64,000 nt of DNA from an uncultured Anaerolineales bacterium (lineage in GTDB: Bacteria > Chloroflexota > Anaerolineae > Anaerolineales > UBA6663), in assembly GCA_964608265.1 (NCBI GenBank), contig CAZSNP010000002.1:41387-105386 (forward strand). The letters run 5' to 3'. Shown in pieces: positions 374-57,968 of the stretch (position 1 is the stretch's first letter; the number at the start of each line of letters is the position of its first letter). Below the pieces are notes generated by a model. That model searched no databases and had not been told where the DNA came from. It saw only the letters and a program-made list of their open reading frames with translations. The position numbers and the translations under genes were made by a program.

Positions 374-3300
374 TCAGTAGTCGCCGGCGAAGGTCTCCGA
401 CCACGCCATCACGCGGATGGCGTCGGCCCCCACCAACGCCTCCAGCTTGCGGCGCGCTTCGGCGGTGAAGGCGATGCGGTCGTTGGGGAAGCGCAACTGC
501 TGCTCGCGCTCCGCTTCGTGGATGACGAACTCGAACTCATCCGGCCCACGCTGGCGCGTGAGCACGCGGTACACGGCCTGCAATCGCTTGCGGTCTTTGA
601 GCGGATCGCCGCTCGCGGTCAGGGTGACGATCACCCGTTGCCACTGCGTGGAGGTGGTTTGTGGGGCCGGGCGCGGGTGGGCGCCGTTCCCGTTGCGGAG
701 GCCATTGCCTGTGGCAACGTTTGCGCTTGCCGGGGCAACTACAACCGGAGCTTCTGCCGCCGGGGAACCGTTGGTCGCCGAGGCCGCCACTTCCTTCACG
801 GCAACATTCGTTGCCGCCAGTGGCTGCGGTGCGCGACCGATCGGTGCGACGTTGGCCGGCTGCATGAATTCCTCATCGTACGGCACATCATCCGGCGGGG
901 GCGGCACGTAGCCGCGCGGCAGCGGCGCGTCATCCGGGGGCAACGGCGCCACGTCGTCGGGCGTGAACATAGTGGCTTGCACCGGCGCGGGGCGCGGGGC
1001 GGGAGCATTCGCCATCTTGAAATCCTGCCGCAGCGAGTCCACCAGAATCTTCGGCGTTCCCCCGGCCGCATCCACCTTGCCGTAGATGACGACGATCTGC
1101 TCGGCCGCCAGCCAGCGGCTGACCTCGCGCCACGTCTTCGGGAAGATGACGAGGTCGAGCGAACCCTGCACATCCTCCACGGTGACGAAGCCCATCGGGT
1201 CGCCCTTCTTCGTGGTGTGCGTGCGGAGGTGGGTGACGACGCCGGCCATCGTCACCGGCTTGCCGTGGTCGTCGGCGCCGAGTTGCGCGCTGGTGTGGGT
1301 GATGACTCCCCCGAGTTGCTCCATCACCGGCTGCAACGGGTGTGCGCTGACGTACAGCCCGATCAACTCCTTTTCCCACCTGAGTTGTTCGCGCTGCGTC
1401 ACGACCACCTTGACCCGCGGCAACTGCACGCCGGTGAAGCCGCCGCCCCCGTCGAACAGCGTCATCTGCCCGGCCTCCGCCGCGCGGAAATGGGCGGCGC
1501 TGGCGTTCACGAACTGGTCGAGGCCTTCGAGCATCTGCCCGCGGTCGCCGAACCGATCGAGCGCGCCGACCTTGATCAGGCATTCGAGCGCGCGTTTGCC
1601 CACCGCGCGCAAATCGGTGCGCTGGCAGAAGTCGTCCAGCGAGGCGAACGGCCCGCCCGCGGCACGCGCGCCGAGGATGACCTGCACCGCGCCCTCGCCG
1701 ACATTTTTGATAGCGGCCATGCCGAAGCGAATGGCTGATGGCTGATTGCCCGCTTTCTGCCTTCCGCCGTCTGCCTCCTGCGCCTCTCTATCTTCAATCG
1801 AAAAATCCACCTGGCTGCGGTTCACATCCGGCGGCAGCACGGCGATGCCCATCGCTTTGCAGTCTTCGACGTACAGCGCCACCTTGTCCGTGTCACCGCG
1901 CGAGGCCGAGAGCACGGCGGTCATGTACTCCACCGGATAGTGCGCTTTGAGATAGGCCGTCTGCACCGAGATCACGCCGTAGTCGGCGGCGTGACTTTTG
2001 TTGAAGCCGTAACGCGCGAACTCCTCCCAATCGGCGAAGATGCCCTCGGCGGCGCTGGGCGGCATGCCCCTGGCCACCGCGCCTTTGATGAACTTCTCCT
2101 GATGTTTTTGCAGACTCTCTTTTTGCTTCTTGGCAATCGCCTTGCGCAGGTCATCGGACTCGCTCATGGTATAGCCGGCGAGTTCCACTGCCGCGCGCAT
2201 GATCTGTTCCTGATAGACCGGGATGCCGTAGGTCTCGTTGAAGATCGGTTCGAGCGAGGCGTGGCGATACTCCACCGGCTCCTCGCCGTGCATGCGCCGG
2301 ATGTAGCTGGGGATGAACTCCAGCGGGCCGGGCCGGTAGAGCGAGATCATGGCGATGATGTTGTCCAGATTCTTGGGCTTCATCTGCGTCAGATAACGCG
2401 TCATGCCCGTGCCTTCCACCTGGAACACACCCAGCGTCTGCCCCCGGCCCATCAACTCGAACGACCTGGGATCGTCCACCGGGATGTTGGTGAGGTCGAA
2501 CTTCACGCCGCGCCGCTGCTCGATGAGCTGGCAGGCGCGCTGCATGATCGTCAGCGTGATCAGCCCGAGGAAATCCACCTTGAGCATGCCGAGCTTTTCG
2601 AGGATGCCCATCTCGAACTGTGTCACCGTTTTGATCGGCGTGTCCTCGGCGTTGCTGGTCGGGCGGTGCAGCGGCAGGTATTCGAGGATGGGCTTGTCGG
2701 CGATGACGACGCCGGCGGCGTGCGTGCCGACGTTGCGCACCACGCCCTCCATCTGCGCGGCGGTGTCAATCAAATCGCGCGTCAGCGATTTGTCGAGCCG
2801 CTGCTCGCCGTTGACCTCCAGCCCGCGGCTGTAAATCTCCTTCAACTCGGGGACCTGTTCCAGGGCTTCGGGGATCGTGATCGGTTTGCCGGGGATGTTG
2901 GGGATTTTCTCGGCGATCTTGCCGACATCCCCAAGGGGGATGTCCATCACCCGGCCCACATCGCGGATGGCGGCGCGCGCGCCGAGCGTGCCGAAGGTGA
3001 TGATCTGCGCGACCTTGTCGCCCCCGTACTTCTGCACGCAATAGTCGAGCAGTTTGTAGCGCAGGTCGTCCTGAAAATCGAGGTCGATATCGGGCATGGA
3101 GACGCGGCCCGGATTGAGGAAGCGCTCGAAGATCAGGCCGTGGGCCAGCGGCTCGACGGTGGTGATGTCGAGCACGTAGGCGACGATGCTGCCGGCCGCC
3201 GAGCCGCGCGCGTTGTACCAGATGCCGTTGTTCAGCGCGTACCGGCACAGATCCCACACGATGAGGAAGTACGCGGCGAAGCCCATCTCGTTGATGACGC

Positions 3301-9960: not shown

Positions 9961-9962
9961 GT

Positions 9963-9977
9963 GTGGAGGGAAGAGGG
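9963..9977. repeat. left arm of 15-bp perfect inverted repeat (inside 44-nt purine tract 9961-10004)
   Basis: GTGGAGGGAAGAGGG is the reverse complement of 10406-10420. Confidence 0.9.
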
Positions 9978-10004
9978 AAGAGGGAGGAGGGAGGAGGGAG
10001 ACGT

Positions 10005-10397: not shown

Positions 10398-10405
10398 TCC
10401 CTCCA

Positions 10406-10420
10406 CCCTCTTCCCTCCAC
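10406..10420. repeat. right arm of 15-bp perfect inverted repeat (inside 30-nt pyrimidine tract 10398-10427)
   Basis: CCCTCTTCCCTCCAC is the reverse complement of 9963-9977. Confidence 0.9.
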
Positions 10421-10427
10421 CCTCCTC

Positions 10428-11417
10428 ATGCTTTCCAGAGTCGCCGAATCCCTCTTCTGGCTGGCCCGCTACATCGAACGGGCGGAGGACATCACGCGCT
10501 TGCTGGCCGTCAACTTCAACGCGCTACTCGACGTGCATCCGCTGGCGGCGCAACGCGGCTGGCAGCCGGTGGTGGCGATGACGGGCGACGAGGCGCTGTT
10601 CGCCGAAGTCTACGGCGCAGCTGACGCGCAGCACGCGATTGAGTTCCTGTTGTGGCATCCCCTCAACCCCAACGCCGTCACCGCCTGCATCACCCGCGCC
10701 CGCGAGAACGCGCGCGGCGTGCGCGAGCAGATCAGCAGCGAGATGTGGGAGCAGCTCAACCGGCTGTATTTCCTGGTGAAGGACGCCGACCGCGCGGCGG
10801 TGCTGCGCAGCCCCAACGAGTTCTTTCAACAGGTGCGCGACGGCTCGCAGGCCTTTCAGGGCATCACGCTGGCGACGATGACGCACAGCGAGCCGTACGA
10901 ATTCATCCGCCTCGGCACGCACCTCGAGCGGGCCGACAAGACCGTGCGCATCCTCGACGCCAGGTACGGCGATGTGCGCGGGCTGGCCGACTCGTCGGCG
11001 GATGCGGCGTTGCAACTCATCGCCCTGCTGCGCTCGTGCAGCGCCTTCGAGCCGTTCCGCCGCGCGCAGGGCTACAGCCTGCAAGCCGACCGGGTGATGG
11101 AGTTCCTGCTGCTCAATCGCGAGTTCCCGCGCGCCGTATTGTTCTGCGTCAACCGCAGCCTGCAATCGCTGGAGATGCTGGGCGAAACCCCGAGCCAACC
11201 GAAGGTGGAGCATCCGCGCCGCGTGCTGGGCCGGTTGAGCGCCGACCTTGAATATCTGGCCATCACGGAAGTGCTGGGTGATGAAATGGGTAAATTCCTC
11301 GACGGGCTCTTGTTGCGCCTCAACGCCGCCGGTGATAGCATCGTGCGCACGTACTTCAACACCAGCGTCATCCTGCCGGACGAGCGACCACGACAACAAC
11401 AGCAACAACAACAGTGA
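10428..11417 (+). CDS. alpha-E domain protein (COG2307 family), poly-Gln C-terminal tail
   Basis: [26 protein letters not shown] is the canonical alpha-E N-terminus. 329 aa, ending QQQQQQQ. Confidence 0.85.
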
Positions 11418-11489: not shown

Positions 11490-12284
11490 ATGCACCTGCG
11501 CATCGAGCACACCACCACCTTTACCTACGATCACCCCATCAGCGAGGCGTATACCGAGATGCGGTTGAAGCCGCTGGACGGGGATGGGCAGCGGTGCTCG
11601 CACTTCACCCTGCTGACCGAGCCGCGCGACGAAGTGCTGCAATACACCGACCGCTTCGGCAACGACGTGCGCCACTTCGACGTCATCCAGCCGCACACCA
11701 AACTGATGGTGGCGGCGGTGAGCGAAGTGCAAACGCCCGACGCCTTCGCGCCCGACGGGGCGCCGCTCTCCCCGCTCGATGAGTTCGACTACTTGATGGC
11801 GACGACGTACGCCCCGCTCAGCGGCGATCTGGCGCAGTTCGCCGCCGCGCGCGCGGTCAGCGGCGACCCGGGGGCCACGGCGCTCGCCCTGACGCACGCG
11901 CTGTTCGACTCGCTCAAATACGAAAAGGGCGCGACCGACGTGTACACGACGGCCGACAAAGCCCTCGCGCTTGGGCGCGGCGTGTGCCAGGATTTCGCCC
12001 ACATCCTGCTGGCCGCGTGCCGCAGCCAGGGCATCCCGGCGCGCTACGTCAGCGGCTATCTGTACAACAACGGCCGCACCGCCGCCTCGCACGCCTGGGT
12101 GGATGTGTACGTGGCCGGGCGCGGCTGGCTGTCGCTCGACCCGACGCATAACACGCTGCAAACAAACCATTACGTGCGCGTGGCCGTTGGCCGCGACTAC
12201 GCCGACGTGCCCCCCACGCGCGGCATCTTCAAGGGCAATGCCAAAGAGAAGATGGAGGTGGAAGTGAAAGTGACGGCAACGTGA
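11490..12284 (+). CDS. transglutaminase-like cysteine protease family protein (COG1305)
   Basis: [28 protein letters not shown] (Bact_transglu_N-like) plus the core [29 protein letters not shown]...HAWVDVY...GWLSLDPTH (Cys-His-Asp). Confidence 0.85.
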
Positions 12285-12286
12285 AG

Positions 12287-12471
12287 CAGGGCATGTGCAA
12301 AGTCCAAGCGATGCCGACGTTTCGCCCTCACCCCTGCCCTCTCCCGCTGGGAGAGGGAGTGATTCGCACCAGTGGAACGCCACTCCCAATCGTCAGGGCC
12401 GGCTCCCCTTCTCCCAGCGGGAGAAGGGGCCGGGGGATGAGGGCGGACTCGGCGACTTTGCACACGCCCTG
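12287..12471. mobile_element. MITE-like element, copy 1 (18-bp TIRs, two internal hairpins)
   Basis: Left end CAGGGCATGTGCAAAGTC (12287-12304) versus the reverse complement of the right end GACTTTGCACACGCCCTG (12454-12471): 17/18. Inner inverted pair CGCCCTCACCCC / GGGGATGAGGGCG. Hairpins CCCTCTCCC-GCTG-GGGAGAGGG and CCCCTTCTCCC-AGC-GGGAGAAGGGG. Confidence 0.65.
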
Positions 12472-12491
12472 CGCCTCCCGCCTCTCAACGC

Positions 12492-12497
12492 TATACT
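12492..12497 (+). promoter_or_regulatory. -10-like box TATACT, 7 nt upstream of priA ATG (leaderless geometry)
   Basis: TATACT TCCCGGC ATG(12505). Confidence 0.35.
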
Positions 12498-12504
12498 TCC
12501 CGGC

Positions 12505-15045
12505 ATGTACGCCGAGATCGCCGTCAACGTCGCCCACCTGAGCGGCACGTTTCACTACGAAATCCCCCGCGACCTTGAAAAACAGTTGCGGGCCGGCCAC
12601 CTCGTCACCGTGCCGTTCAGCGGGCGCGAGGCGCAGGGCGTCGTCGTCGCGTTGAGCGATGAGTCGCCCGTCGACGGCGTTCCCAGGGAACGCGTCAAGC
12701 CCGTCATCGGTCTCGTTGATCCCGAGCCGGCCCTCACCCGCGCGCAGCTCGACCTCGCCTATTGGATCGCGCACACCTACCTCGTCTCACTCATCGACGC
12801 GCTCACCCTCATGCTGCCGCCCGGCCTGAGCAAACAGGCCGAGGTGGTGTATTCGCTCGTGGACGGCGAGCTTGCAGCGGACGCTCCAGCGACGACCGCT
12901 AAAGCGGCCACTACCAACAATCTCCAGTCATCGCTTCTCAATCTTCTGAAAGAACGCGGCGCCCTTCGTTCGCGCCAGCTCGACCGGGCGTTTCCGAAGC
13001 AGAAGTGGCGGCCGGTCGCCGAAGCGCTCGTGCGGCGCGGCGTGCTGAGCAAGCACAGCCGCTTGGAGCCGCCCTCGGTGCATGCCAAGCAAGTGAAGAC
13101 CGCGCGCCTCATCGCCAGCGTGCCGCAGCTCGAGGCGGTGCGCGGCTCGCTCTCGCGCTCGGCAGCCAAGGCCAAACGTTTGCAAGCCGCGCTCGATTTT
13201 CTGGGCCGTGAGGCTAAGCCGGTGGAGGTGCCGTGGGTGTACGCGGCCTCGGGCTGCGACCTGCAGGACCTGCGCGACCTGGCCGAGATGGAACTCGTTG
13301 ACCTGGGCGAGGCCGAGGTGTGGCGCGACCCGCTGGCCGGCAAGGAGTTCGTGCCCGACAGCGCCCCGCCGCTCACCGACGATCAACAGCGTGTGTGGGA
13401 CGCCGTGCGCTCCTCCCTCCACTCCCCCCCTTCCACAATTTTGCTGCACGGCGTCACCGGCTCGGGCAAGACCGAAATTTATCTGCGGGCGCTGGAGGAA
13501 GCGCTGAAGCAGGGCAAGCGCGCGCTGGTGCTTGTGCCCGAGATCGCGCTCACGCCGCAGACGGTGCGCCGGTTCGCCGCGCGCTTCCCCGGCCGCGTGG
13601 CGGTGTGGCACAGTGAACTCGGCGAGGGCGAGCGTTACGACACCTGGCGGCGCGCGCGTTCGGGATTGGTGGACATCGTCATCGGCGCGCGCAGCGCGTT
13701 GTTCGCGCCGCTGCCCGACCTCGGCGTGATCGTGCTGGACGAGGAGCACGACGAGGCCTACAAGCAGGATCCGCCGCAGAGCGTGCCCTATCACGCGCGC
13801 GAGGCGGCGATTGAGTATGCCGGGCAGCTCGGCGCGGTGTGCCTGCTCGGCTCGGCCACGCCGGATGTGGTGACGTTCCATCGCGCGCGGCGCGGCGCGT
13901 ACACCTTGCTCGAACTGCCGCTGCGCATCATGGGCCACGCGCGCAAACTCGAGGAGCAGGCCGAACGGTTCCACGTCGCCTCGCGCTATCACTCGCTCAG
14001 CGCCGAGACGCAGACGATCGATCTGCCGCCGGTCGAGATCGCCGACATGCGACACGAGTTGCGCATGGGCAACACCACGATGTTCAGCCGCAAGCTGCGC
14101 GACTATCTCGAAAACGCCATCGCGCAGAACGAGCAGGCCATCCTGTTCCTCAACCGGCGCGGCACTTCGACGTTTGTGTTCTGTCGCGATTGCGGCGAGG
14201 CGCTCAAGTGCCCGAACTGCGACACCACCCTCACCCATCACGGCTCGGCGCAACAACTGACCTGCCACCACTGCGGCCATCGCCAGCCGCAGCCGGAGCG
14301 TTGCCCGAACTGCCACAGCCCGCGCGTGAAGTTTTTTGGATTGGGCACCGAGAAGCTGGCCGAGGCGGTGACGGCGGAGTTCCCCGGCGCGACGGTGCTG
14401 CGCTGGGATCGCGATGCCACGCGGACGAAGGGCGCGCACGAACTCATCCTGCGCACGTTCAGCACGCAACAGGCCAACGTCCTCGTCGGCACGCAGATGA
14501 TTGCCAAGGGCCTCGATCTGCCGCTGGTGACGCTGGTGGGCGTGATCTCGGCGGATGTCGGGCTCGGGCTGCCCGATTACCGCGCCACCGAGCGGACGTT
14601 TCAATTGCTGACGCAGGTGGCCGGGCGCGCGGGCCGCGGCCTGCTGGGTGGCCGGGTGGTGTTGCAGACCTATCAGCCGGAGCATTACGTGATTCAGGCT
14701 GCGTCACAGCACGATTACGCCGGCTTCTACCAGCGCGAGATCGCCTACCGCAAAGACCTCGGCCTGCCGCCCTTCCGGCGCGTGATGCGGCTGCTCTATC
14801 GCCACGCCGATTACTCGCGGGCCGAGGCCGAGGCCAACGTCGTGGCGGCGCAACTGCGGCTGCGGGTGAAGGATGGCAAGCTGCTGAACACCGACGTCGC
14901 CGGCCCGGCCCCGGCCTTTTTCGGCAAGCTGGCCGGTGAGCATCGCTGGCAGATTATCGTGCGCGGCCCCGACCCGGCCGCCCTGGCGCGCGGGCTGCAA
15001 CTCAAAGGCTGGGTGGTGGATGTGGATCCGTTGAGCACGCTGTAA
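12505..15045 (+). CDS. priA: primosomal replication restart helicase PriA
   Basis: MYAEIAVNVA..GTFHYEIP start. Walker A GVTGSGKTE, DEEHD box, Cys-rich zinc region CRDCGEALKCPNCDTTLTHH...LTCHHCGH...CPNC. The track's upstream 70 codons lie in the MITE and are rejected. Confidence 0.9.
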   Translation: MYAEIAVNVAHLSGTFHYEIPRDLEKQLRAGHLVTVPFSGREAQGVVVALSDESPVDGVPRERVKPVIGLVDPEPALTRAQLDLAYWIAHTYLVSLIDALTLMLPPGLSKQAEVVYSLVDGELAADAPATTAKAATTNNLQSSLLNLLKERGALRSRQLDRAFPKQKWRPVAEALVRRGVLSKHSRLEPPSVHAKQVKTARLIASVPQLEAVRGSLSRSAAKAKRLQAALDFLGREAKPVEVPWVYAASGCDLQDLRDLAEMELVDLGEAEVWRDPLAGKEFVPDSAPPLTDDQQRVWDAVRSSLHSPPSTILLHGVTGSGKTEIYLRALEEALKQGKRALVLVPEIALTPQTVRRFAARFPGRVAVWHSELGEGERYDTWRRARSGLVDIVIGARSALFAPLPDLGVIVLDEEHDEAYKQDPPQSVPYHAREAAIEYAGQLGAVCLLGSATPDVVTFHRARRGAYTLLELPLRIMGHARKLEEQAERFHVASRYHSLSAETQTIDLPPVEIADMRHELRMGNTTMFSRKLRDYLENAIAQNEQAILFLNRRGTSTFVFCRDCGEALKCPNCDTTLTHHGSAQQLTCHHCGHRQPQPERCPNCHSPRVKFFGLGTEKLAEAVTAEFPGATVLRWDRDATRTKGAHELILRTFSTQQANVLVGTQMIAKGLDLPLVTLVGVISADVGLGLPDYRATERTFQLLTQVAGRAGRGLLGGRVVLQTYQPEHYVIQAASQHDYAGFYQREIAYRKDLGLPPFRRVMRLLYRHADYSRAEAEANVVAAQLRLRVKDGKLLNTDVAGPAPAFFGKLAGEHRWQIIVRGPDPAALARGLQLKGWVVDVDPLSTL

Positions 15046-25060: not shown

Positions 25061-25363
25061 ATGTCTGCAATGTCACACGCCTGGCGGCACGAACTCCGCC
25101 ATTCACTGCGCCGCGCTTTCCGCCGCAACGGCCATCATCGCTCGCCGTTCGGCTGGCTGTTCTGGCTGCTCTTCCTGCCCTTCCGGCTGGTCTTCGGATT
25201 GGTCGGCTTCATCATCGGGCTGGTCGGGCGGCTGGTGGCGTTCATCCTCGGCGCGGTATTCGTCGTCGTCGGCGTGCTCGTCAGCCTGACCATCGTCGGG
25301 GCCATCATCGGCATCCCACTCGCATTGATCGGGTTGGTGATGATGGTCAAGGCGATCTTCTGA
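25061..25363 (+). CDS. small hydrophobic membrane protein (100 aa)
   Basis: GGAGG SD 5 nt before ATG 25061. Arg/His-rich N-terminus followed by ~3 TM helices. Confidence 0.55.
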   Translation: MSAMSHAWRHELRHSLRRAFRRNGHHRSPFGWLFWLLFLPFRLVFGLVGFIIGLVGRLVAFILGAVFVVVGVLVSLTIVGAIIGIPLALIGLVMMVKAIF

Positions 25364-25393
25364 TCGGCGATCTTCTGATCGGCGATCTTCTGA
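25351..25393. repeat. 15-bp tandem repeat x2.9 (GGCGATCTTCTGATC) spanning the stop codon of the small membrane protein
   Basis: Units at 25351-25365, 25366-25380 and 25381-25393; the stop TGA is at 25361-25363. Confidence 0.9.
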
Positions 25394-25395
25394 GC

Positions 25396-25509
25396 AAAAC
25401 GTGATGCGTGAAACGTGAGACTCGGTTGTGGCGAAGTTTCGACCATTGACCGAGTCAATGAACGACCACGCATCACGTTTCACGTTTCACGTTTTACGCA
25501 TCACGCATC

Positions 25510-32435: not shown

Positions 32436-32464
32436 GGTGCTGTGCGGATGGTGCCCGAAGATTT

Positions 32465-32565
32465 CGCCCTCACCCCCCGCCCCTCTCCCGCTGGGAGAGG
32501 GGGGTGGGCTTGGTCATTTCAGGGTCAACTCCCTCTCCCGGAGGGAGAGGGTTGGGGTGAGGGCG
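32465..32565. mobile_element. MITE-like element, copy 2 (core only; outer TIRs degraded)
   Basis: CGCCCTCACCCC ... CCCCTCTCCC-GCTG-GGGAGAGGGG ... CCCTCTCCC-GGA-GGGAGAGGG ... GGGGTGAGGGCG. Confidence 0.55.
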
Positions 32566-32573
32566 AGCCGCAA

Positions 32574-35500
32574 TCACGAAGAAGCCTCTGCCACCGGCGC
32601 AAACGGCAGCGTGAAATGGAAGGTGCTGCCTTTGCGGTACTCGCTCTCGAACCAGATGCGCCCGCCCTGCATCTCGATCAGGTTCTTGACGATGTTGAGG
32701 CCGAGGCCGGTGCCGGTGGCCATCTCGCGCGCCATGCGGTCCTCGGCGCGGAAGAACTTTTGGAAGAGCTTGCGTTGATCCTCGGGCGCGATGCCGATGC
32801 CGTCATCCTGCACCGACAGATGCAACACCTCCGGCGGGCCATCCGGCTCCCAGATGTTTTCGGCGCGCGCCGCCCGCAGCACGATGTGCCCGCCCTCGGG
32901 CGTGTACTTGTGCGCGTTCGAGATCAGGTTGGTGACGACCTGCGAGGTGCGCACGTAATCGGCCAGCACGTACGGCAGGTCGGTCGGAATCTCCACCGTC
33001 AGCAGTTGTTTCTTGGCCTCGAGCAACGCGCTGGTGCTGCGGATGACGTCGTCGGTGACGGCGGTGATCGGCAGCGGCTTCAACTCCAGCTTCAACCGCC
33101 CGCTCTCGATGCGGGCCACGTCGGAGAGGTCGGAGACCAGCGTGTTCATGCGCTCGACGTTGCCGCGGATGGTGCCGAGGAACTGCCGCTGCATGTCGTT
33201 GGGCTGGCCGACCACGCCGCCCATCAGCAAATCGGCGTAGCCCTTGATCGACGTCATCGGCGTCTTCAGCTCGTGCGCGACGAAGGACACAAATTCGCTC
33301 TTGGCCAGATTCGCGGCGTGCACCTCGGCGTACAGCCGCGCGTTCGTCAGGGCAATCGCGGCCAGGTCGCCGAGGCGCGTGGCGAACGCTTGCTGCTCCG
33401 GGGTGAAGCCTTCGGGCAGATTGCTCTCGAGCACGATCAGGCCGATGACCTGCCGCTCGCGCCGCAGCGGGATGGTGAACACCGCGCGCGTCGAGTCGAG
33501 CACCGGCAGGCCATGCGCCTCGCGGACGACATCGCCCAGCAGTTGCGGCTCGCCGGTGGCCAGCACCCGCCCAAGCAGACCTTCATCCAACGGCAGCGAC
33601 CGCTCGCTCAAATGCGCGGCCGCCTCGCCGTAGCCCTCGCTCACCAGCACGTTCACGCCGCTTTCGGAGGTCAGCCCGCCCCAGCCGGCGAGGGCGCTGG
33701 CGCTGCGCATCGCCGCGCGCAGCGTCACCGCCATCACCCGGTTGGTCTCGAGGGTGGTGTTCAACTCGCGCCCGATGCGTTGCAGCGCCGAGAGTTCATC
33801 CACGCGCGCGTTCAGCGCCTCATCCGTCTGCGTGAACAAGCGCGCGTTCTCGATGGCGATGACCGACGGCGTGGTGAAGGCGGTGAGCAGCGTTTGATCG
33901 TTCTCGTCGAACGGGGAGCCGTCGCGTTTGTTGATCAGTTGCAGCGCGCCGATGGGCCGGCCCTTGAACTTGAGCGGCACGGTGATGAGGGCGTGGGTGT
34001 GGAAGCCGGTGAAGGTATCGGCGTCTTTGTACCAGCGCGCATCCTTCTCCACATCGTTGACGATGACGGGCCGGCCGCCCTCGATGGCCTCGCCGACGAA
34101 GCCGCGCCCGGGGGCGATGCGCGTGCCGACCAGGTTCTGGCCCACCGGCCCGACGGCCACGCGGAAGACGTACTCACCGGTGTCGGCGTCAATCAAATAC
34201 AGGCTGCCGGCCTCGCAGTTGAGGATGCTGACCGCGCTCTGCACGATCTTTTCGAGCAACGGGTCGAGTTCGAGGGTCGAGGCGATGGTGAGGCTGACCT
34301 CGTTGAGGGTGGCCAGTTGGCGCGCGCGTTCCTCGGATTGTTGAAAGAGCCGCGCCTTGGTGATGGCCGAGGCGGCCTGATCGGCGATGGCCCAGAAGAT
34401 TTTGAGCTGGTCGTCGGTGAAGGTGATCGTCGGGTCGGTCGCCGCCACCATCATCGCCCCGATGGTCTCCGGCCCGGCGTTGAGCGGCACGCCCATCCAC
34501 GCGCGATAGAGCTTCGCGCCCGGCGTCACCTCGCGCCGGTGGCACTCCTCCGTGTAGTCGTCGGTGCGGATGGGTTGGCCGCTGCCGAGGATGACGCTCT
34601 CCAGCCCGCGGTCATCGGGCACCGGCTGGCCTTCACGCTCGAGGATGCGGTCGTCGTTTTCGACGTACAACTCGTACCGGGCCACGCCGCGCGGGTCCTT
34701 CAACGCGAGGAAGAAATTGCGCGCATCCACGATCTTGCCGGCCTGCGCGTTGATGAGTTCGAGCAAATCGTTGAAGGCGGTGGTGAAGCTCACCGCCTGC
34801 GACATCTGGCTGAGGACGTTGAGTTCCTTCACGCGCCGCTCGAGGTCGTTGATGACCGAGGCGCGTTCGACCGCCAGCGCGGCCTGGTCGGCCAGCGACT
34901 CGATAAAGCGCAAATCGTCGCGGCTGAACGGCTCGCCGGAGAGCTTCGGCCCGACGGCCAGCCAGCCGGTCAGCCCGCTCTTGCCCCGCAACGGCGTATA
35001 CAGCCCCGAACCGAGCACGGCCAGCCGCGCCCGATCACGCACCAGCCGCTGGGGCAGCGTCTGCTCGGGCGAGAGCAGCAGCGAGTTGCGTTCGCCCTTC
35101 AAATGCGTGGCCAGCGGGCCGTCGCTCGCAAACCGGATGTCGGTGGTGGCCTGGCCGCTATCGTCGGGCGCGGCGGCGAACTCATCGGTGACGCTGTCAT
35201 GCAGGAAGACGTGCAGGTGCGCGGGCTTCACCACTTCATCGGCCGTCTGCGCCAGCGCGGTCGTGATCTCGTATAACCCGGCAGCCTGAGTCAGCACGCG
35301 GCCAAACTGCTCGAGCTGGCGGGTGTAAGTCCGCGAGCCTTGAAAGAACGCCCGCTCGATCCAGCGTTGCAGCCGCTCGCGAATCGGGTTCGAGATAAAG
35401 ACCAGCACGAGCACCAGCACCGTCACCGTCAACGGGTCGCTCGCGTTGAGGGCCGTGCCGAGCAGCACACTCAGGCCGGCGAGCACCAGGCCGTACCCGG

Positions 35501-37868: not shown

Positions 37869-40367
37869 CTACGGCCTGAGCGTCAACGTCTCCGCCTTCA
37901 TTGCCTCGACTGCCGCGCGGGTGAACGGCAGCGTGTTGTACTCGATCTTGCGCCACTTCTCGGCATAATCAATGTAGTGCGCGTGATACGGGTGGCCCGA
38001 CTGCCCGGTGGTGTGGATGGCGCGGGTGTTGTCGAAGTCGCTGAAGTCCACGATCAGCCGCATCGACGGCACCGAGGTCACCGCATACGGCTCTCCGCGC
38101 AGGAGGTTGAAGCCGGTGGCGTTGACGATGGATGTGCCCCCGCTGGTGGCGAACGGCCCGCGATTGAACAGCGCGCGGATCGGCGCCGGCCACGCGGTGC
38201 TGCCGAAGACCCGGTTGTTGAACGTCGAGGTGTGCAACCGGCCCCAGTTCCACTCCTCCATCGAGCCGCCCAGCCGCGTCTTCAAATCAGCCACGCCCTC
38301 GGCGAAGGCGCGGCGCAGGATGTCGTCGCGCGATTCGATCACCCCGGTGCCCTGGTCATCCCACCACGCGCTGTTCGGCTGGGCCATGAGCACGCGCAGC
38401 CGCACCCAGGTGTCGTCGTTGCCCTGCGGCCGATACTCCTCGGGCAGCGGCTCATCCCAAAACGTCTCCATCACCAGCGAGCGGAAGAAGCCGGCATAGA
38501 TCGCCGCCGGCCGCGAACCCATCCGCATCTGCAGATCCCACCCGCGCAACTCGGCCTGGGCGCGCGCTAACTCCGGGTCATCGAACTGCAGGGCCAGCAA
38601 CGCCGGCAGCACCTCCGCCGCGCCGAGGTTTTTGTCGTCGCCGTGGATCGTCATCATATCTTCGAGCGACAGCGTCGGCCTGGCGCGGATCATCTCATTG
38701 ATGCGCGCCGCGCGATAGCCCATGTCGAAGCCGCTGGCGGTGATGAGGTATGGATATTCCGGCCCGACGACGGGCTGGTTGGCGGTGGCGAGGTAGCCCT
38801 GCGGCGGGTTGAAGGCGTAGGGCAACTCGTCGAACGGGATGAAGCCCGTCCACTGATAGTCGTCCGTCCAGCCGGGCACCGGCAGCGTGCCGTCGCCGCT
38901 CCGGCGGATGGGCACGTTGCTCGGCATCTGATAGCCGATGTTGCCGTCGACATCGGCGTACACGAAGTTCTGCGCCGGCACGTTCCAATAGCGCAGGGCA
39001 TTCCGAAAATCATCCCAGTTCTGCGCGCGGTTGAGTTCGAGCACCGCACGGAAAACCTGCCCCGTGTCGAGCGCGGTCCAGCGCAGGGCCAGCCCGTAGC
39101 TCGCATCGAGCGCGACGCTGTTGATCGTCACCGTCTCGGAGATCAGGCTCTCGGCGTCGCCAAACACGTCGTTGATGAGCGGCCCGTTGCGGGTGTAGCG
39201 AATCGTCACCGGCACCGGCTCGCCGCCGAGCACGTTGATCGTCTCCTCAATCACCGTCATATCGCGCCACGCGCCGTTGACGTCGTATTGATTGGGGTTG
39301 GCCGGGTTGATCTTTTCGATGAAAAGATCCTGCACGTCGGGGTCGACGTTCGTCACCCCCCAGGCGATGCGGGCGTTGTGGCCGATGATGACGCCGGGGT
39401 CACCGGCCAGCGAATAGCCCACCACATCGAACGGGCAATCGGCGGAGACCGTGCGGCAGTGCAGACCGACAAGATACCAGATCGCTGGCATCTGAATCCC
39501 AAGGTGGGGATCGTTGGCGAGCAGCGGCTGGCCGGTGTTCGTGCGGCTACCGTGGATGACCCAGTTGTTCGAGCCTATGCCGCGCCGCGCTTCGCCGAAG
39601 GCATTGCCGAACAGCGCGCGCACATCGTCGATCCGCGCCCGCACCCGATGCAGCCCAAGCGCACCGACGGCGGGCGAGGGCACGATGACGGGATGATCGC
39701 GCGGCGGCGCGGGCAGAAACTCGGCGGTCCGCTGCGGGCCGAGGGCCTCGGTCAGCACAGCGCGCATGATTTCGTTATCCATGCTGCCGCTCAAATCCCA
39801 CGCCATCGCCTTGCCCCACGCCAGCGAGTCAGCCGCGCTCCACGCATACGGCTTCCGGCTCGGGTCAAAGCCGTTGAGCGCCAGCAGCGAATACTCGAGG
39901 CCGAGGTCGGCATACGTGCGCGGGCCGATGTACGCATTCACACCCTCGGTATAGGCGTCGAGGATGGCGCGTGTTTCGCCATCGGCCAGCGCATGTTCCT
40001 GCTCGGCCACGCGCCACCAGCCGACGGTGCGCAGGAACATATCCGTCTCCACCTGGCTCGCGCCGACGAGTTCGGAGAGGCGCCCGGCGGTGGTGTGCCG
40101 CCAGAAATCCATCTGCCAGAAACGGTCTTGCGCGTGAACGTAGCCCTGCGCGAAGAACAGGTCGTGCGGGGTGTCGGCGTAAAGGTGCGGCACGCCGTTG
40201 ACATCGCGGATGATCTCGACCGGGCCGCGCAGGCCGGGCGCGGTCAGCGCGCCGGCCGTTTGCGGGAACGAGCGGGTGATGGTGTAACCGAGGAAGGTAA
40301 GGGCCAGCACGACCACGGCCAGCAGGACGATACCAACGACGCGCAGCACGCCGAGCACGGTTCGCAT
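37869..40367 (-). CDS. penicillin acylase family protein (Ntn-hydrolase, peptidase S45)
   Basis: MRTVLGVLRVVGIVLLAVVVL TM, then VEIIRDVNGVPHLYADTPHDLFFAQGYVHAQDRFWQMDFWR and the GSNNWV autoprocessing site. This is only the 3' third of the 2550-aa track ORF. Confidence 0.85.
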   Translation of the reverse strand: MRTVLGVLRVVGIVLLAVVVLALTFLGYTITRSFPQTAGALTAPGLRGPVEIIRDVNGVPHLYADTPHDLFFAQGYVHAQDRFWQMDFWRHTTAGRLSELVGASQVETDMFLRTVGWWRVAEQEHALADGETRAILDAYTEGVNAYIGPRTYADLGLEYSLLALNGFDPSRKPYAWSAADSLAWGKAMAWDLSGSMDNEIMRAVLTEALGPQRTAEFLPAPPRDHPVIVPSPAVGALGLHRVRARIDDVRALFGNAFGEARRGIGSNNWVIHGSRTNTGQPLLANDPHLGIQMPAIWYLVGLHCRTVSADCPFDVVGYSLAGDPGVIIGHNARIAWGVTNVDPDVQDLFIEKINPANPNQYDVNGAWRDMTVIEETINVLGGEPVPVTIRYTRNGPLINDVFGDAESLISETVTINSVALDASYGLALRWTALDTGQVFRAVLELNRAQNWDDFRNALRYWNVPAQNFVYADVDGNIGYQMPSNVPIRRSGDGTLPVPGWTDDYQWTGFIPFDELPYAFNPPQGYLATANQPVVGPEYPYLITASGFDMGYRAARINEMIRARPTLSLEDMMTIHGDDKNLGAAEVLPALLALQFDDPELARAQAELRGWDLQMRMGSRPAAIYAGFFRSLVMETFWDEPLPEEYRPQGNDDTWVRLRVLMAQPNSAWWDDQGTGVIESRDDILRRAFAEGVADLKTRLGGSMEEWNWGRLHTSTFNNRVFGSTAWPAPIRALFNRGPFATSGGTSIVNATGFNLLRGEPYAVTSVPSMRLIVDFSDFDNTRAIHTTGQSGHPYHAHYIDYAEKWRKIEYNTLPFTRAAVEAMKAETLTLRP

Positions 40368-40398
40368 ATTGACCTCACGAGTGGGTTGCGGTGGCGCA

Positions 40399-40427
40399 CT
40401 TGTACCACCGGCGCAGCCCGGCGTCAA
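40399..40427 (-). promoter_or_regulatory. putative promoter of the penicillin acylase gene
   Basis: Reverse strand TTGACG - 17 nt - TACAAG; GAGG SD before the ATG. Confidence 0.35.
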
Positions 40428-40441
40428 ACACCCATCGCGGA

Positions 40442-40447
40442 TACAAT
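40442..40447 (+). promoter_or_regulatory. -10-like box TACAAT, 10 nt upstream of ATG 40458
   Basis: TACAAT CTGCTCCAAC ATG. Confidence 0.3.
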
Positions 40448-40457
40448 CTGCTCCAAC

Positions 40458-42689
40458 ATGCGACTCGCCGTTTTCATTTTGCTGGCCGCATTCTACCTGC
40501 GCCTCACCGATCTGTTGAGCTTCCCCGTCTTCATTGACGAAGCGACCTACGTGCACTGGGCCAGGCTGTTCGCCGCGAACACGCCCACATATCCGGTGTG
40601 GATGGAGGGCCGCCTCCTCGCGGTGATGTGGATGGCGCTGTTCGACCTCTCGGGCGCGGGGCCGCTGTGGCTGGCGCGGGCGGCGGTGGCGCTGCTGTCG
40701 GTGATGAACTGCGCGGCCTGCCTCACGGTGGGCCGGTGGGCGGGCGGGCGAGTTGTGGGTTGGATGGCGGGCGGGTTGTACGCGGCGTTGCCGTACGCGC
40801 TCTTTCACGACCGGCAGGCGATCACCGATCCGGTGGCGACGGCCTTCGGTTCGCTCGTGCTCGTGGGCGCGTTGAGCCTGGCTCGCACGCGGCGCTGGCC
40901 GCTCGTCGTGCCGCTGGGCGCGGCGTTCGCGGCGGCGGTGCTGGCGAAGTTCAACGCCGCGCAATATCCGGTCGTGTTTGTGCTGGCCGTCATCGTCATC
41001 GCCCGCACACGGCGTGAGCGCGCAACACTCGCGCTGCAATTCGGCGCGGCGCTGCTGGTGGCTGCCGTGGGCGTCGGCGCGTTTGCCGGGCTGCTCGGCC
41101 CGAGGCTGGGCAGCGGCGGCGGCATCCTGGCCGACTCGGCGTTGAGCCAGCAGCAGTGCCCGCCCGCGCTGTGCGGCGGCGATTGGGCCGAGCAGTGGCG
41201 GCGTTTGCCCCTCGCCCTCAACAGCCTGCCCGAGGTCGTGCCGCCCTACTTCGGCTGGCCGCTGCTCGCCGCCGCGGTGCTGGGCAGCGTTTCGCCTCGC
41301 CCGGCGCGGGAGGGGTCGGGGGGGAGGGCGAGCCGGCGGCCATTGATCGTCACCCTCGCCCTCACCCTCCTCCTCATGCTCCTCGCCGTCATCGTCACCA
41401 TGCGCTCGGTGGTCGTGCCGCGCTACATGGGCTTCATGGTCGTGCCGCTGCTCGTGCTGGCGGCGAATGGGGTGGCGTACTTTTTCAACCGGCGCACGCT
41501 CATCCCCGGCCTGCTGGCGCTGGGGATCGTGGCGCTCTCGTTTCGCAATTCGCTGACGTTGCTCACCGCGCCGACGCAGGTCGAGCTGCCGGCGATTGAT
41601 CGGCAGCAATACCTCACCGGCTTTTACTCCGGCCGCGGCTTTCGCGAGCTCGCGGCGACGGTGGCCGCCCGCGAGCCACAACCGCTGACGCTGACGAGGA
41701 CGGCGTGGCAGACACTGCCGCTCAACGCCTACCTCGACGCGCGCGGCTTGCAGGCCGTGGCGGCGACCGAGGCGCGCTGGCCCGCCGTGCTCCGGGCCCT
41801 CGCGGCGCAAGGCGGCGTGTCCGTCATCGAGGAACTCGATGGCGACTCGTTGACCGATGGCGAAACTCAGTTTACGCTCGAACGCGAGGGCGAGGCCAGG
41901 ACGTTGCGGCTCGTTCACTTCGATGAGCCGACGGCGACTCTGTTCGATGCGGTCTTCCAGCGGCCCGATGCTTTCCTCGACGCCTACGCTCAACTCATCG
42001 CCGACACGCCGGCCGAGGCCGCCCTCGTGCCGTATCCGCTGCATCAGGCCTCGGTGCTCAAAGAACGCACGCCGCTCACCGTCATCGACACCGCGCAGCG
42101 CTGGGACACCGCAGCCCTCATCGCCGAGGCCGGGGGCCGGCCGCGCGTCCGCACCGTTTTTCTGGATGAGGCCCGCTTCGATCCGGAGCGCAGCTTCGAG
42201 GCGTGGCTGGCTGCGGATTTCCACCACCTCGGCGTGCGCTGGTTCGGCCCGCTGCGTGCGGTGGATTGGGCCGGCGCGGCCGAGCTGGATCGCTTGTGGC
42301 GCGCCGAGGTTGCCTTCGGCCAGGCGTTGACCCTGCGGACGGTGGAGGTCGGCGAGGCTGCCGCGCGGCCCGGTGAACCGCTGCGCCTGCGGCTGACGTT
42401 CGCGGCCTCGGCCCCAACCGCCATCCCGTACAAAGTCTTCGTCCATCTCATCCGAGGCGATCAACTCCTCGGCCAGCACGACAGCGAGCCGGTTGCCGAC
42501 CTGCGCCCGACGACGGGTTGGCGGCCCGGCGAGGTCATCCGCGATCAAATTGCCCTGCAAATCCCGGCCGATTTGCCGCCCGGCGAGGCCCGGCTGCGGA
42601 TTGGGCTGTACGACCCCGTCAGCGGCGACCGGATTCTGACCCTTGACGGCGCGGAGTTTTACCTGTCGCCGCCGCTCACGCTGCGCTGA
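40458..42689 (+). CDS. GT-C fold membrane glycosyltransferase (ArnT/PMT family 39-like) with large C-terminal soluble domain
   Basis: MRLAVFILLAAFYLRLTDLLSFPVFIDEATYVHWA (first-loop DE motif), >10 TM segments, then ~350 aa soluble. In frame with track ORF 38643..42689, whose upstream part is antisense to the acylase. Confidence 0.55.
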   Translation: MRLAVFILLAAFYLRLTDLLSFPVFIDEATYVHWARLFAANTPTYPVWMEGRLLAVMWMALFDLSGAGPLWLARAAVALLSVMNCAACLTVGRWAGGRVVGWMAGGLYAALPYALFHDRQAITDPVATAFGSLVLVGALSLARTRRWPLVVPLGAAFAAAVLAKFNAAQYPVVFVLAVIVIARTRRERATLALQFGAALLVAAVGVGAFAGLLGPRLGSGGGILADSALSQQQCPPALCGGDWAEQWRRLPLALNSLPEVVPPYFGWPLLAAAVLGSVSPRPAREGSGGRASRRPLIVTLALTLLLMLLAVIVTMRSVVVPRYMGFMVVPLLVLAANGVAYFFNRRTLIPGLLALGIVALSFRNSLTLLTAPTQVELPAIDRQQYLTGFYSGRGFRELAATVAAREPQPLTLTRTAWQTLPLNAYLDARGLQAVAATEARWPAVLRALAAQGGVSVIEELDGDSLTDGETQFTLEREGEARTLRLVHFDEPTATLFDAVFQRPDAFLDAYAQLIADTPAEAALVPYPLHQASVLKERTPLTVIDTAQRWDTAALIAEAGGRPRVRTVFLDEARFDPERSFEAWLAADFHHLGVRWFGPLRAVDWAGAAELDRLWRAEVAFGQALTLRTVEVGEAAARPGEPLRLRLTFAASAPTAIPYKVFVHLIRGDQLLGQHDSEPVADLRPTTGWRPGEVIRDQIALQIPADLPPGEARLRIGLYDPVSGDRILTLDGAEFYLSPPLTLR

Positions 42690-57419: not shown

Positions 57420-57868
57420 TCAGGCTGCGCCGTGGGGCCGGGCGTGATCGAGGTAGCCCGACTGGCCCTGAAAGACGACGAAGTTCGCGTCCGCGCCGCG
57501 GAAGGCGTCAATCAGCTTGGTGTAGCCGGCCAGGGCGAGGGCAAAGTCCAGTCCACGCCAGATTTTCGCCCTCACCCCGTCCCTCTCCCGCTGGGAGAGG
57601 GAGTGGAGCGTGTCATTGGAATCCCGCTCCAAATCATGAGTGCCGACTCCCCCTTCTCCCGCTGGGAGAGTCGCTGCGCTTACGGGGCTGGGGGATAAGG
57701 GCGAGCGCGGTGACTTTGCACACACCCTGTGTGGCCGGCGTTCCTGATCGCCGTGATCGTGTCTTCGAGAGCGTATGCGTTGAGTTCGCCGCTGATGAAT
57801 CTGTGTCGAAGCGCGTTCACAGAGGATACGCCGGTTGTCGTGAGGCTGTATGCGAAGGCGGGTGACGG
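57420..57868 (-). pseudogene. C-terminal remnant of an extracellular endonuclease/exonuclease/phosphatase (ExeM/NucH-like) gene, split by a MITE
   Basis: Reverse-strand translations: 57850-57730 gives ..FISGELNAYALEDTITAIRNAGHT; 57530-57423 gives AGYTKLIDAFRGADANFVVFQGQSGYLDHA... The two halves are 209 nt apart and out of frame; removing 209 nt restores the frame. Confidence 0.45.
57531..57729. mobile_element. MITE-like element, copy 3, with 10-bp flanking direct repeat
   Basis: TIRs CAGGGCGAGGGCAAAGTC (57531-57548) / GACTTTGCACACACCCTG (57712-57729), 15/18. Flanks TGTAGCCGGC (57521-57530) and TGTGGCCGGC (57730-57739), 9/10. Confidence 0.65.
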
Positions 57869-57942
57869 TCACGGGCAACTCGTTGCTGCCCGTGACCGTC
57901 GCTGTGAAACAAGTGGGGCTGGCCCTGAAGGCGGCCAGCCCC
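57863..57942 (-). terminator. two tandem strong hairpins downstream of the NPP/5'-nucleotidase gene
   Basis: GGGGCTGGCC-8nt-GGCCAGCCCC (57915-57942), followed on the minus strand by ACTTGTTTC. GACGGTCACGGGCA-9nt-TGCCCGTGACCGTC (57863-57899). Confidence 0.65.
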
Positions 57943-57968
57943 TGTTGATACCGGGATAGTCGTTGGGG

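Follow-up and report, generated by a model that had tools for sequence, protein, structure and literature searches.

The window analysed here, a 64,000-nucleotide (nt) stretch of DNA from an uncultured Anaerolineales bacterium of the phylum Chloroflexota (GenBank assembly GCA_964608265.1, contig CAZSNP010000002.1, positions 41,387 to 105,386 of the forward strand), carries three copies of a short palindromic repeat, all of which are intergenic and lie beside unrelated genes. Copy 1 (12287-12471, 185 bp) begins 2 nt past the stop codon (12282-12284) of a transglutaminase-like gene, and 33 nt separate its end from the priA ATG at 12505. Copy 2 (32463-32567) fills the 138-bp spacer between the genes for a cyclic nucleotide (cNMP)-binding histidine kinase and a GAF histidine kinase, and copy 3 (57531-57729, 199 bp) has a phosphodiesterase/5'-nucleotidase gene on one side and, on the other, a gene for a GT4 glycosyltransferase, the likely start of which it precedes by ~290 nt. 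A preliminary description of this DNA, made from the sequence alone, had put the three copies in these gene contexts and had aligned them through a set of shared blocks; positions, neighbors, and alignment were all confirmed. Copies 1 and 3 are bounded by terminal inverted repeats (TIRs) of 18 bp, CAGGGCRTGTGCAAAGTC; copy 2 consists of the motif core only and has no TIRs. The TIRs common to copies 1 and 3, the 10-bp target-site duplications (TSDs), and the existence of transposase-bearing elements with the same ends argue that these two copies are, very probably, MITEs (miniature inverted-repeat transposable elements) of an insertion sequence (IS) of the ISAs1 family, carrying inside their TIRs a doublet of triplex-motif (TM) modules.

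All four matches to the TIR 18-mer GACTTTGCACACGCCCTG that the window contains at up to 3 mismatches are the ends of copies 1 and 3 (0.10 expected; 0 of 100 shuffles). In copy 1, the left TIR CAGGGCATGTGCAAAGTC (12287-12304, plus strand) and the right TIR GACTTTGCACACGCCCTG (12454-12471, plus strand, 0 mismatches), once reverse-complemented, differ at a single position, so that the arms are complementary at 17 of 18 positions, the same value as in the preliminary description. In copy 3, the left TIR CAGGGCGAGGGCAAAGTC (57531-57548, plus strand, 2 mismatches) is degenerate and complementary at 15 of 18 positions to the right TIR GACTTTGCACACACCCTG (57712-57729, plus strand, 1 mismatch). The latter copy is flanked by the TSD copies TGTAGCCGGC (57521-57530) and TGTGGCCGGC (57730-57739), which are identical at 9 of 10 positions. 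Inverted repeats of 14 to 22 bp that begin with CAGGG and a direct repeat of 10 bp are typical of the ISAs1 family (PMC11946415), and the window TIRs, with their 18 bp and CAGGG start (CAGGGCATGTGCAAAGTC / GACTTTGCACACGCCCTG), fit this signature.

The interior of copy 1 comprises a left TM module (12324-12357, minus strand), made of the C-tract GCCCTCACCCC, TG, and the hairpin CCCTCTCCC-GCT-GGGAGAGGG; a middle spacer (..ATTCGCACCAGTGGAACGCCACTCC..; 12358-12404), which forms the apex of the long hairpin and aligns with the middles of copy 3 and of Oscillochloris MITEs (ATTCCGCACCAGGA..); and a right TM module of a variant type, CCCCTTCTCCC-AGC-GGGAGAAGGGG-CC-GGGGGATGAGGGC (12405-12444, plus strand), in which the extra A of the purine arm is mirrored in the G-tract. 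The loop of the first hairpin, earlier read as GCTG plus four G, is thus only 3 nt long. Copy 3 has its left TM module at 57568-57601 (minus strand) and, at 57647-57702 (plus strand), a right module that is both variant and disrupted: TCGCTGCGCTTAC (57671-57683) interrupts its purine arm, ahead of the G-tract GGGGGATAAGGGC, and the same 13-nt disruption is present in related metagenome copies (L134, L140, L141, and L143). Copy 2, with its tail GAGCCGCAATCAC, extends over 32463-32577 and was recovered by both pattern and profile matches as a TIR-less TM doublet, with its left module at 32466-32502 and its right module at 32531-32564. It had been regarded as an eroded core, but both of its modules are intact; it lacks the TIRs and has a shorter middle, and the eroded second hairpin is that of copy 3. 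The string TTCGCCCTCACCCC occurs exactly once in each of the three copies, and the window contains 7 hairpin-type matches (0.35 expected) and 8 GGGGTGAGGGCG-type blocks (0.88 expected). An nhmmer search of the window with the family profile returned copies 1, 2, and 3 and nothing further at E-values up to 10. A string resembling a degenerate single module (tttcgcctcgcccggcgcgggaggggtcgggggggagggcgag, 41283-41335) was rejected as a family member, being located inside a long ORF (38643-42689, plus strand; no Pfam match) and missed by the profile.

Copy 1 is predicted to fold into a single long hairpin of -123 kcal/mol (z = -10.9); the z score for the predicted fold of copy 3 is -4.4. Neither element has coding capacity, as had been proposed: the open reading frames (ORFs) that cross copies 1 and 3 are PSPLPSPAGRG-type read-throughs, and the content is otherwise TIRs, motif modules, and spacer. 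The PSPLPSPAGRGS peptide, for example, is the frame CCC TCA CCC CTG CCC TCT CCC GCT GGG AGA GGG AGT read from 12325 in copy 1, and a 152-aa (amino acid) ORF that spans copy 3 (57420-57878) has no Pfam match. Excision of copy 3 together with one TSD (57740-57970 joined to 57420-57530, minus strand) restores a frame of ~80 codons (..NAYALEDTITAIRNAGYTKLIDAFRGADANFVVFQGQSGYLDH..), possibly a relic gene fragment; as the restored peptide has no Pfam match, gene disruption by copy 3 is not claimed.

Two longer elements, L083:2216-3491 (1276 bp) and L034:2470-3757 (1288 bp), have the same TIRs as the MITEs, both TIRs of the L034 element being the same as the right TIR of copy 1, and are flanked by perfect 10-bp TSDs. 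Each carries one ORF, of 388 and 394 aa, respectively, that codes for an intact transposase. The two proteins match the NCBIfam model NF033564 ("ISAs1 family transposase") over its full length with 234 and 222 bits (cut-off, 70), as well as the Pfam domains PF13808 and PF01609 (DDE_Tnp_1_assoc and DDE_Tnp_1). The preliminary description had proposed to look for a transposase gene flanked by the same TIRs; these two lie outside the window. In a Herpetosiphonaceae metagenome-assembled genome (MAG), several contigs end ~100 nt inside a TIR, in what resembles the 3' end of a gene for a transposase, which suggests a multi-copy element at which short-read assemblies break. The kinship with the ISAs1 family (ISAs1 of Aeromonas salmonicida, ISMae35 and ISAsp2 of cyanobacteria) consists in the 18-bp TIRs starting with CAGGG, the 10-bp target duplication, and the NF033564 ORF in the TIR-sharing 1276- and 1288-bp elements. 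Unlike these ISs, the window elements are only 185 to 199 bp long and encode nothing; the 18-bp ends are all that they have in common, and their interior is unrelated to that of the IS.

When one genome per species was scanned for the TIR pattern GACTTTGCACAYRCCCTG, at least 112 loci were found, of which at least 103 belong to Chloroflexota (Oscillochloris, Herpetosiphonaceae, Dehalococcoidia, Anaerolineae, Aggregatilineales, Roseiflexus, and Thermoflexus). Among the loci listed, 18 are from "Candidatus Oscillochloris fontis," 14 from an Oscillochloris MAG, 15 from a Herpetosiphonaceae MAG, and 24 from Dehalococcoidia MAGs; the 9 from other phyla are each a single unpaired TIR match, as chance predicts. 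The same listed loci form 60 left-right TIR pairs, the short ones spanning 73 to 308 bp (a range that leaves aside two pairs of 39 and 66 bp with masked runs of N) and the two long ones being the 1276- and 1288-bp elements; short pairs in Chloroflexota genomes number at least 58. The 10-bp flanks are identical at all 10 positions in 27 of these 60 pairs, at 9 in 6 pairs, at 8 in 3, and at 7 in 1, whereas in the remaining 23 pairs only 1 to 4 positions agree. Identity of 7/10 or more, found in 37 of the 60 pairs, compares with a maximum of 7/10 among cross-paired control flanks. A generic hairpin motif with neither conserved termini nor target duplications, the outcome that the preliminary description had named as speaking against a transposable element, is thus the opposite of what the family displays. 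In one Dehalococcoidia MAG (OZ253476.1, L024:4988-5890), three consecutive elements of 250 to 308 bp with variant TIRs (CAGGGCCGGCGCAAAGTC) are each followed by the same ~37-bp flank, a tandem triplication of the MITE and its flank.

In metagenomes, which were scanned with the left module of the window subfamily as the query, elements like copy 1 were found at unrelated loci, with identities of 94.6% (L136) and 93.5% (L138). The L138 element has a perfect 10-bp TSD; the L136 element has the 8-bp sequence GCACCACC on both flanks, 2 bp off the 10-bp register. Near-identical strains all carry the copies, and in a strain 96 to 98% identical to the window, copy 3 is in place (L132 and L134). Elements of the copy-3 type also form head-to-tail tandem arrays (L130, L131, L141, L143, and L145, from the metagenomes Ga0114938 and Ga0209398; TRF period, 133 to 146; at least 1.8 units, the arrays being cut by contig ends), each junction of which is a fusion of the right G-tract with a degenerate left TIR (GGGCGAGCGCAAAGCCCACGCC). 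Matches in viral contigs were not accepted as elements. The TIR matches L151:9651-9668 and L152:471-488 are an exact 18-mer in an apparent coding region common to two phage contigs (..DFAHAL..) with no partner TIR, and are coincidental or convergent; the core-pattern matches examined (L012, L013, and L016) are single modules beside gene starts, with no TIRs.

In the mechanism proposed here, a DDE transposase of the ISAs1 family, encoded elsewhere on a 1.28-kb IS with the same ends and supplied in trans, would bind the 18-bp ends CAGGGCRTGTGCAAAGTC and cut at the TIR ends, and the 185- to 199-bp unit would be integrated with a 10-bp stagger, giving rise to the 10-bp target duplication. An active partner may still be present in the window organism. 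The TM doublet would ride along inside the TIRs as cargo, whatever role the triplex modules might have. Insertion would be followed by decay and rearrangement, including erosion of the TIR (as at the left end of copy 3), deletion of one hairpin (as in the 115-bp Oscillochloris elements), and formation of head-to-tail arrays (as in the metagenome contigs). Short, non-coding, multi-copy elements that have the TIRs of an autonomous IS, a TSD of the same length as that of their partner, and a long-hairpin fold are well known in bacteria, for example, MaeMITEa-h of Microcystis (PMC2779907) and the Tn3-derived TIMEs, which form mosaics (PMC4133298). The elements described here differ from MITEs in general in that their cargo is a specific, widely conserved triplex-motif doublet that is common to at least one other TIR shell. 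In the literature searched, no description was found of an ISAs1-derived MITE family or of Chloroflexota MITEs.

The identity of the cargo emerged from a literal search of the literature for GGGTGAGGG, which led to TM_ECO, formerly known as BoxC or the PIT element. The published TM_ECO pattern is CCCTCNCCC-N3-6-GGGNGAGGG-N3-GGGNGAGGG (Holder et al. 2015, PMC4666352); the motif is intergenic and often arranged in inverted pairs, with 3610 occurrences in 262 proteobacterial genomes (PMC4666352). In the window, the exact pattern has 3 matches (12325-12357, minus strand, in the left module of copy 1; 32531-32563, plus strand, in copy 2; and 57569-57601, minus strand, in the left module of copy 3), with 0 expected, and the other three modules of the window copies are near-matches or variants. 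Each TM module consists of a 9- to 11-bp C/T-G/A hairpin and a mirror-symmetric G-tract, and the two modules of each window copy are inverted with their G-tracts outward, which makes the whole element one long palindrome. The third block mirrors the purine arm: GGGTGAGGG is the mirror partner of GGGAGAGGG, and GG(G)ATGAGGG that of GGGAGAAGG(G). The variant module (CCCTTCTCCC / GGGAGAAGGG / GGGATGAGGG), to which both the right module of copy 1 and that of copy 3 belong, retains the mirror symmetry, since the purine arm GGGAGAAGGG and the G-tract GGGATGAGGG each contain one additional A. Across the loci listed, standard arms occur with standard G-tracts (75 cases) and variant arms with variant G-tracts (6 cases), with no mixed modules; as the variant represents only ~2 independent lineages, this is weak covariation.

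The elements thus resemble TM_ECO in their three modules of exact pattern, intergenic location, and inverted pairing, and one-hairpin deletion derivatives that are still able to fold, such as those of Oscillochloris, have been described for E. coli BoxC/TM_ECO as well. They differ from the published proteobacterial motif in being found in Chloroflexota, inside elements bounded by TIRs and TSDs, in having a second module that is a co-varying variant (GGGAGAAGGG with GGGATGAGGG), and in the orientation of the G-tracts, which are outward in the window copies and inward in the E. coli pair examined. A BLAST search with copy 2 found matches in 4460 of 5426 complete E. coli genomes. The H-repeat element of E. 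coli is itself of the ISAs1 type. A derivation of the E. coli BoxC pairs from ISAs1 MITEs by decay was considered and rejected; in the one locus checked, the BoxC pair between hrpB and mrcB of strain MG1655, no CAGGG...AAAGTC-like ends are found. The purine-motif intrastrand triplex of TM_ECO has been observed in vitro, with single-stranded E. coli oligonucleotides only, and was not detected in vivo (PMC4666352).

The preliminary description had left open whether the repeat is a non-autonomous transposable element or a structured module similar to repetitive extragenic palindromic (REP) sequences. The conserved ends, the TSDs, and the ISAs1 partners speak for the former, and "REP-like" fits the inner core only, that is, the BoxC/PIT/TM_ECO pair, which also occurs without TIRs. 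An intergenic pair of inverted hairpin modules that together form a larger hairpin is the layout of REPINs, in which two inverted REP sequences are mobilized by RAYT, a Y1 transposase of the IS200/IS605 type. A REPIN origin is nevertheless most improbable. The conserved tetranucleotide GTAG or CGTC, given as the REP tag (PMC3733652), is missing in the window copies, which have GACGTTTC (copy 1), AGATTTC (copy 2), or GATTTTC (copy 3) before the C-tract. The elements of the family have the TIRs and 10-bp TSDs of DDE transposons, and their autonomous counterparts code for DDE transposases of the ISAs1 family rather than for a Y1 transposase. To our knowledge, Y1 transposition yields neither DDE-type TIRs nor 10-bp TSDs.

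The great stability of the predicted fold (z = -10.9) and the intergenic location of all three copies, with copy 1 placed between a stop codon and the next start, could also be expected of an immobile, host-selected structured RNA or regulatory signal, such as a terminator, an attenuator, or an mRNA stabilizer. We consider this hardly credible, since the adjoining genes are unrelated and the TSDs and the transposase-bearing relatives point to mobility. No Rfam family reached its gathering threshold anywhere in the window, and a permissive Rfam scan of copy 1 returned only sub-threshold models of microRNA precursors and generic hairpins, far below their gathering scores. Likewise, no terminator-like or promoter-like site was predicted in 12150-12600, and in E. 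coli, tests of the motif revealed no promoter or terminator activity (PMC4666352).

Several observations weigh against the assignment of copies 1 and 3 to ISAs1-derived MITEs or limit its reach. A tblastn search with both ISAs1 transposases found no such gene in the 64-kb window (best E-value, 0.6), and an active partner in this lineage is only putative; the preliminary description had placed the partner transposase outside the window, and ISAs1 transposases are encoded elsewhere on the TIR-sharing 1276- and 1288-bp elements. The 23 of 60 TIR pairs among the loci listed whose flanks agree poorly have no recognizable TSD, and the choice of loci by their TIR pattern biases the counts of TIR association. 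The TSDs that the preliminary description had recommended looking for are present at the family level and at copy 3 but not at copy 1, the copy on which the finding is centered, the flanks of which have none; moreover, the site orthologous to that of copy 1 is occupied in relatives by a different palindromic element. Because of these two circumstances, the insertion of copy 1 is deduced from the behavior of the family. The other points concern the motif core. Of its 48 matches in the loci listed, ~20 are far from any ISAs1-type TIR; the core is found without TIRs in copy 2 of the window and in an E. coli BoxC pair; and one Oscillochloris genome carries the same doublet in shells of two kinds (see below).

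At the priA locus, copy 1 can be compared with its orthologous site. Proteins identical to those of the window are found on JGI metagenome contigs of up to 45 kb, and the closest named PriA homologues, 77 to 82% identical, are from Anaerolineales MAGs. In the relatives with 80 to 82% identical PriA, the transglutaminase-priA gene order is kept and copy 1 is absent: their spacers of 113 and 138 bp (L147 and L149), compared with 220 bp in the window, contain no MITE but a different, CGTGAAACGTGA palindrome, and from ACGCTATACTTCCC.CATG onward, the sequence is again similar to that of the window. Copy 1 thus represents a presence/absence difference, as the preliminary description had proposed to look for, and not a clean empty site, which was rejected because the spacers hold a different palindrome and no single-copy target can be read; nor is the difference seen among near-identical strains, all of which have the copies. 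The window itself has a related palindromic element, also intergenic and made of CACGTTT/ACGTGAA heptads, at 25391-25500 (CGTGAAACGTGA: 4 matches, 0.35 expected), directly downstream of a 15-bp sequence repeated perfectly in tandem (GGCGATCTTCTGATC, 2.9 units, 25351-25393); the one in L147 (~2890-3000) and L149 (~2865-3000) sits precisely where the window has copy 1. A TATACT located 7 nt upstream of the priA ATG (window 12492-12507) is conserved in the window, L147, and L149, and suggests a leaderless priA transcript; everything upstream of ~-25 relative to priA is replaced in the window by copy 1.

The window also contains a 130-aa bAvd/23S-rRNA-intervening-sequence-protein gene (PF05635, PF22296) inserted between the CP_ATPgrasp and Alpha-E genes, which is bracketed by a 31-nt purine-rich inverted repeat (9962-9992 and 10398-10428, 87% complementary) and is also found in L147 and L149. 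Farther along, a gene for an Mrr-type restriction endonuclease (PF04471; 30213-31103, minus strand) is shared by the window and three strain contigs and missing from the otherwise collinear L003, a strain-level presence/absence polymorphism.

The relation between the TIRs and the core varies within the family. MITEs of Oscillochloris (166 to 169 bp; L056, L088, L102, L126, L101, and L110) have the same order of parts as the window copies, namely, TIR, spacer, C-tract and hairpin, middle (ATTCCGCACCAG..), hairpin and G-tract, spacer, and TIR, and in the 115-bp Oscillochloris versions, one hairpin is lost. The MITEs of Dehalococcoidia have the modules in the opposite arrangement, with the G-tracts inward and abutting the TIRs. 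Overall, the motif is found inside ~20 of 59 TIR pairs among the loci listed, and the remaining interiors are unrelated. In the Oscillochloris sp. MAG CAIRFY, the same ~115-nt doublet (94.8% identical, ungapped) is present in ISAs1-type shells and in a second shell with the TIR CAATACTTTTCGAATAAG. The elements with this second shell (L018:3309-3490, L087:3946-4126, and L126:777-947) are 171 to 182 bp long and have their own 10-bp TSDs at a TTTAAA-like target, two of them perfect (gctttaagcg and tctttaaacc) and the third with 8/10 identity. A third shell that encloses the doublet, with a long TIR of ~33 nt (ACAAGGTTCGCAGATACTTTACAGTTTGTCGCC), was detected in L018, L038, L050, and L084. Across the shells, the core boundaries are sharp, at GCCCTCACC...GGTGAGGGC.

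The occurrence of the same core in two unrelated, TSD-bearing shells argues that the TM doublet core is a discrete module shared between different MITE families. Since the core is also found without TIRs and in another TIR shell, the ISAs1-type TIRs do not explain all of its spread; they account for the movement of copies 1 and 3 but not for the whole history of the core. Copy 2, for which neither ISAs1-type nor CAATACTTTTCGAATAAG-type TIRs were found nearby, illustrates this point. Its assignment to the ISAs1 shell on the basis of the GCCGCAATCAC tail was considered and rejected, as this tail is also found behind the core in the CAATACTTTTCGAATAAG shell. Since the core includes the GCGGCAA(A)TC tail that comes next to the G-tract, copy 2 is not assignable to any shell.

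These observations would also be compatible with the doublet being the real repeated unit that spreads independently of TIRs, through some unknown machinery, gene conversion, or insertion into the centers of other palindromes, with the ISAs1-type TIRs of copies 1 and 3 as a secondary shell. The intact TIR-less doublet of copy 2 and the TIR-less BoxC pair examined in E. coli, the sharp boundaries of the CAIRFY doublet in ISAs1-type, CAATACTTTTCGAATAAG, and long-TIR shells, and the opposite module arrangement in Dehalococcoidia all favor such a spread, as does the published observation that TM_ECO was never found with transposons, transposases, or mobility genes nearby (PMC4666352). On the other hand, the unit bounded by TSDs in copies 1 and 3 and their close relatives is the entire element from TIR to TIR, no TSD or target signature is seen at the core boundaries, and two TSD-bearing shells are what would be expected if the MITE shells are the vehicles. 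An independent spread of the core appears unlikely, and it is best seen as a second layer that complements the mobilization of copies 1 and 3 as ISAs1-family MITEs rather than as its strict competitor. A tentative extension of the latter explanation, possible but less than even in our judgment, is that BoxC/TM doublets are an exchangeable module carried around Chloroflexota genomes by shells of the ISAs1 type and of one or more unrelated TIR families. In a stronger version, the doublet itself may seed the formation of MITEs or be a preferred partner for TIRs.

While MITEs, ISAs1 elements, and the core motif are all known already, two results are new with respect to the literature searched: a superfamily of ISAs1-derived MITEs that spans Chloroflexota, and the presence of BoxC-type triplex motifs inside TSD-flanked elements of two TIR types. 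In genome annotation, these elements give rise to spurious "PSPLPSPAGRG"-type ORFs, and they are points at which the contigs of short-read Chloroflexota MAGs break; the combination of an 18-bp TIR and a 10-bp TSD offers a simple mask, as well as a marker for strain-level insertion polymorphism. The biophysics of BoxC/PIT/TM_ECO has been studied in E. coli, and the motif has been linked to local genome instability, but no means of its dispersal had been known. If the doublet is indeed an exchangeable module, transposase-driven hitch-hiking combined with core exchange would provide a concrete dispersal mechanism for a class of motifs whose spread has lacked an explanation ever since the description of BoxC in the 1990s. 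The presence of the motif in TSD-flanked elements of two TIR types makes the question of how it spreads directly testable.

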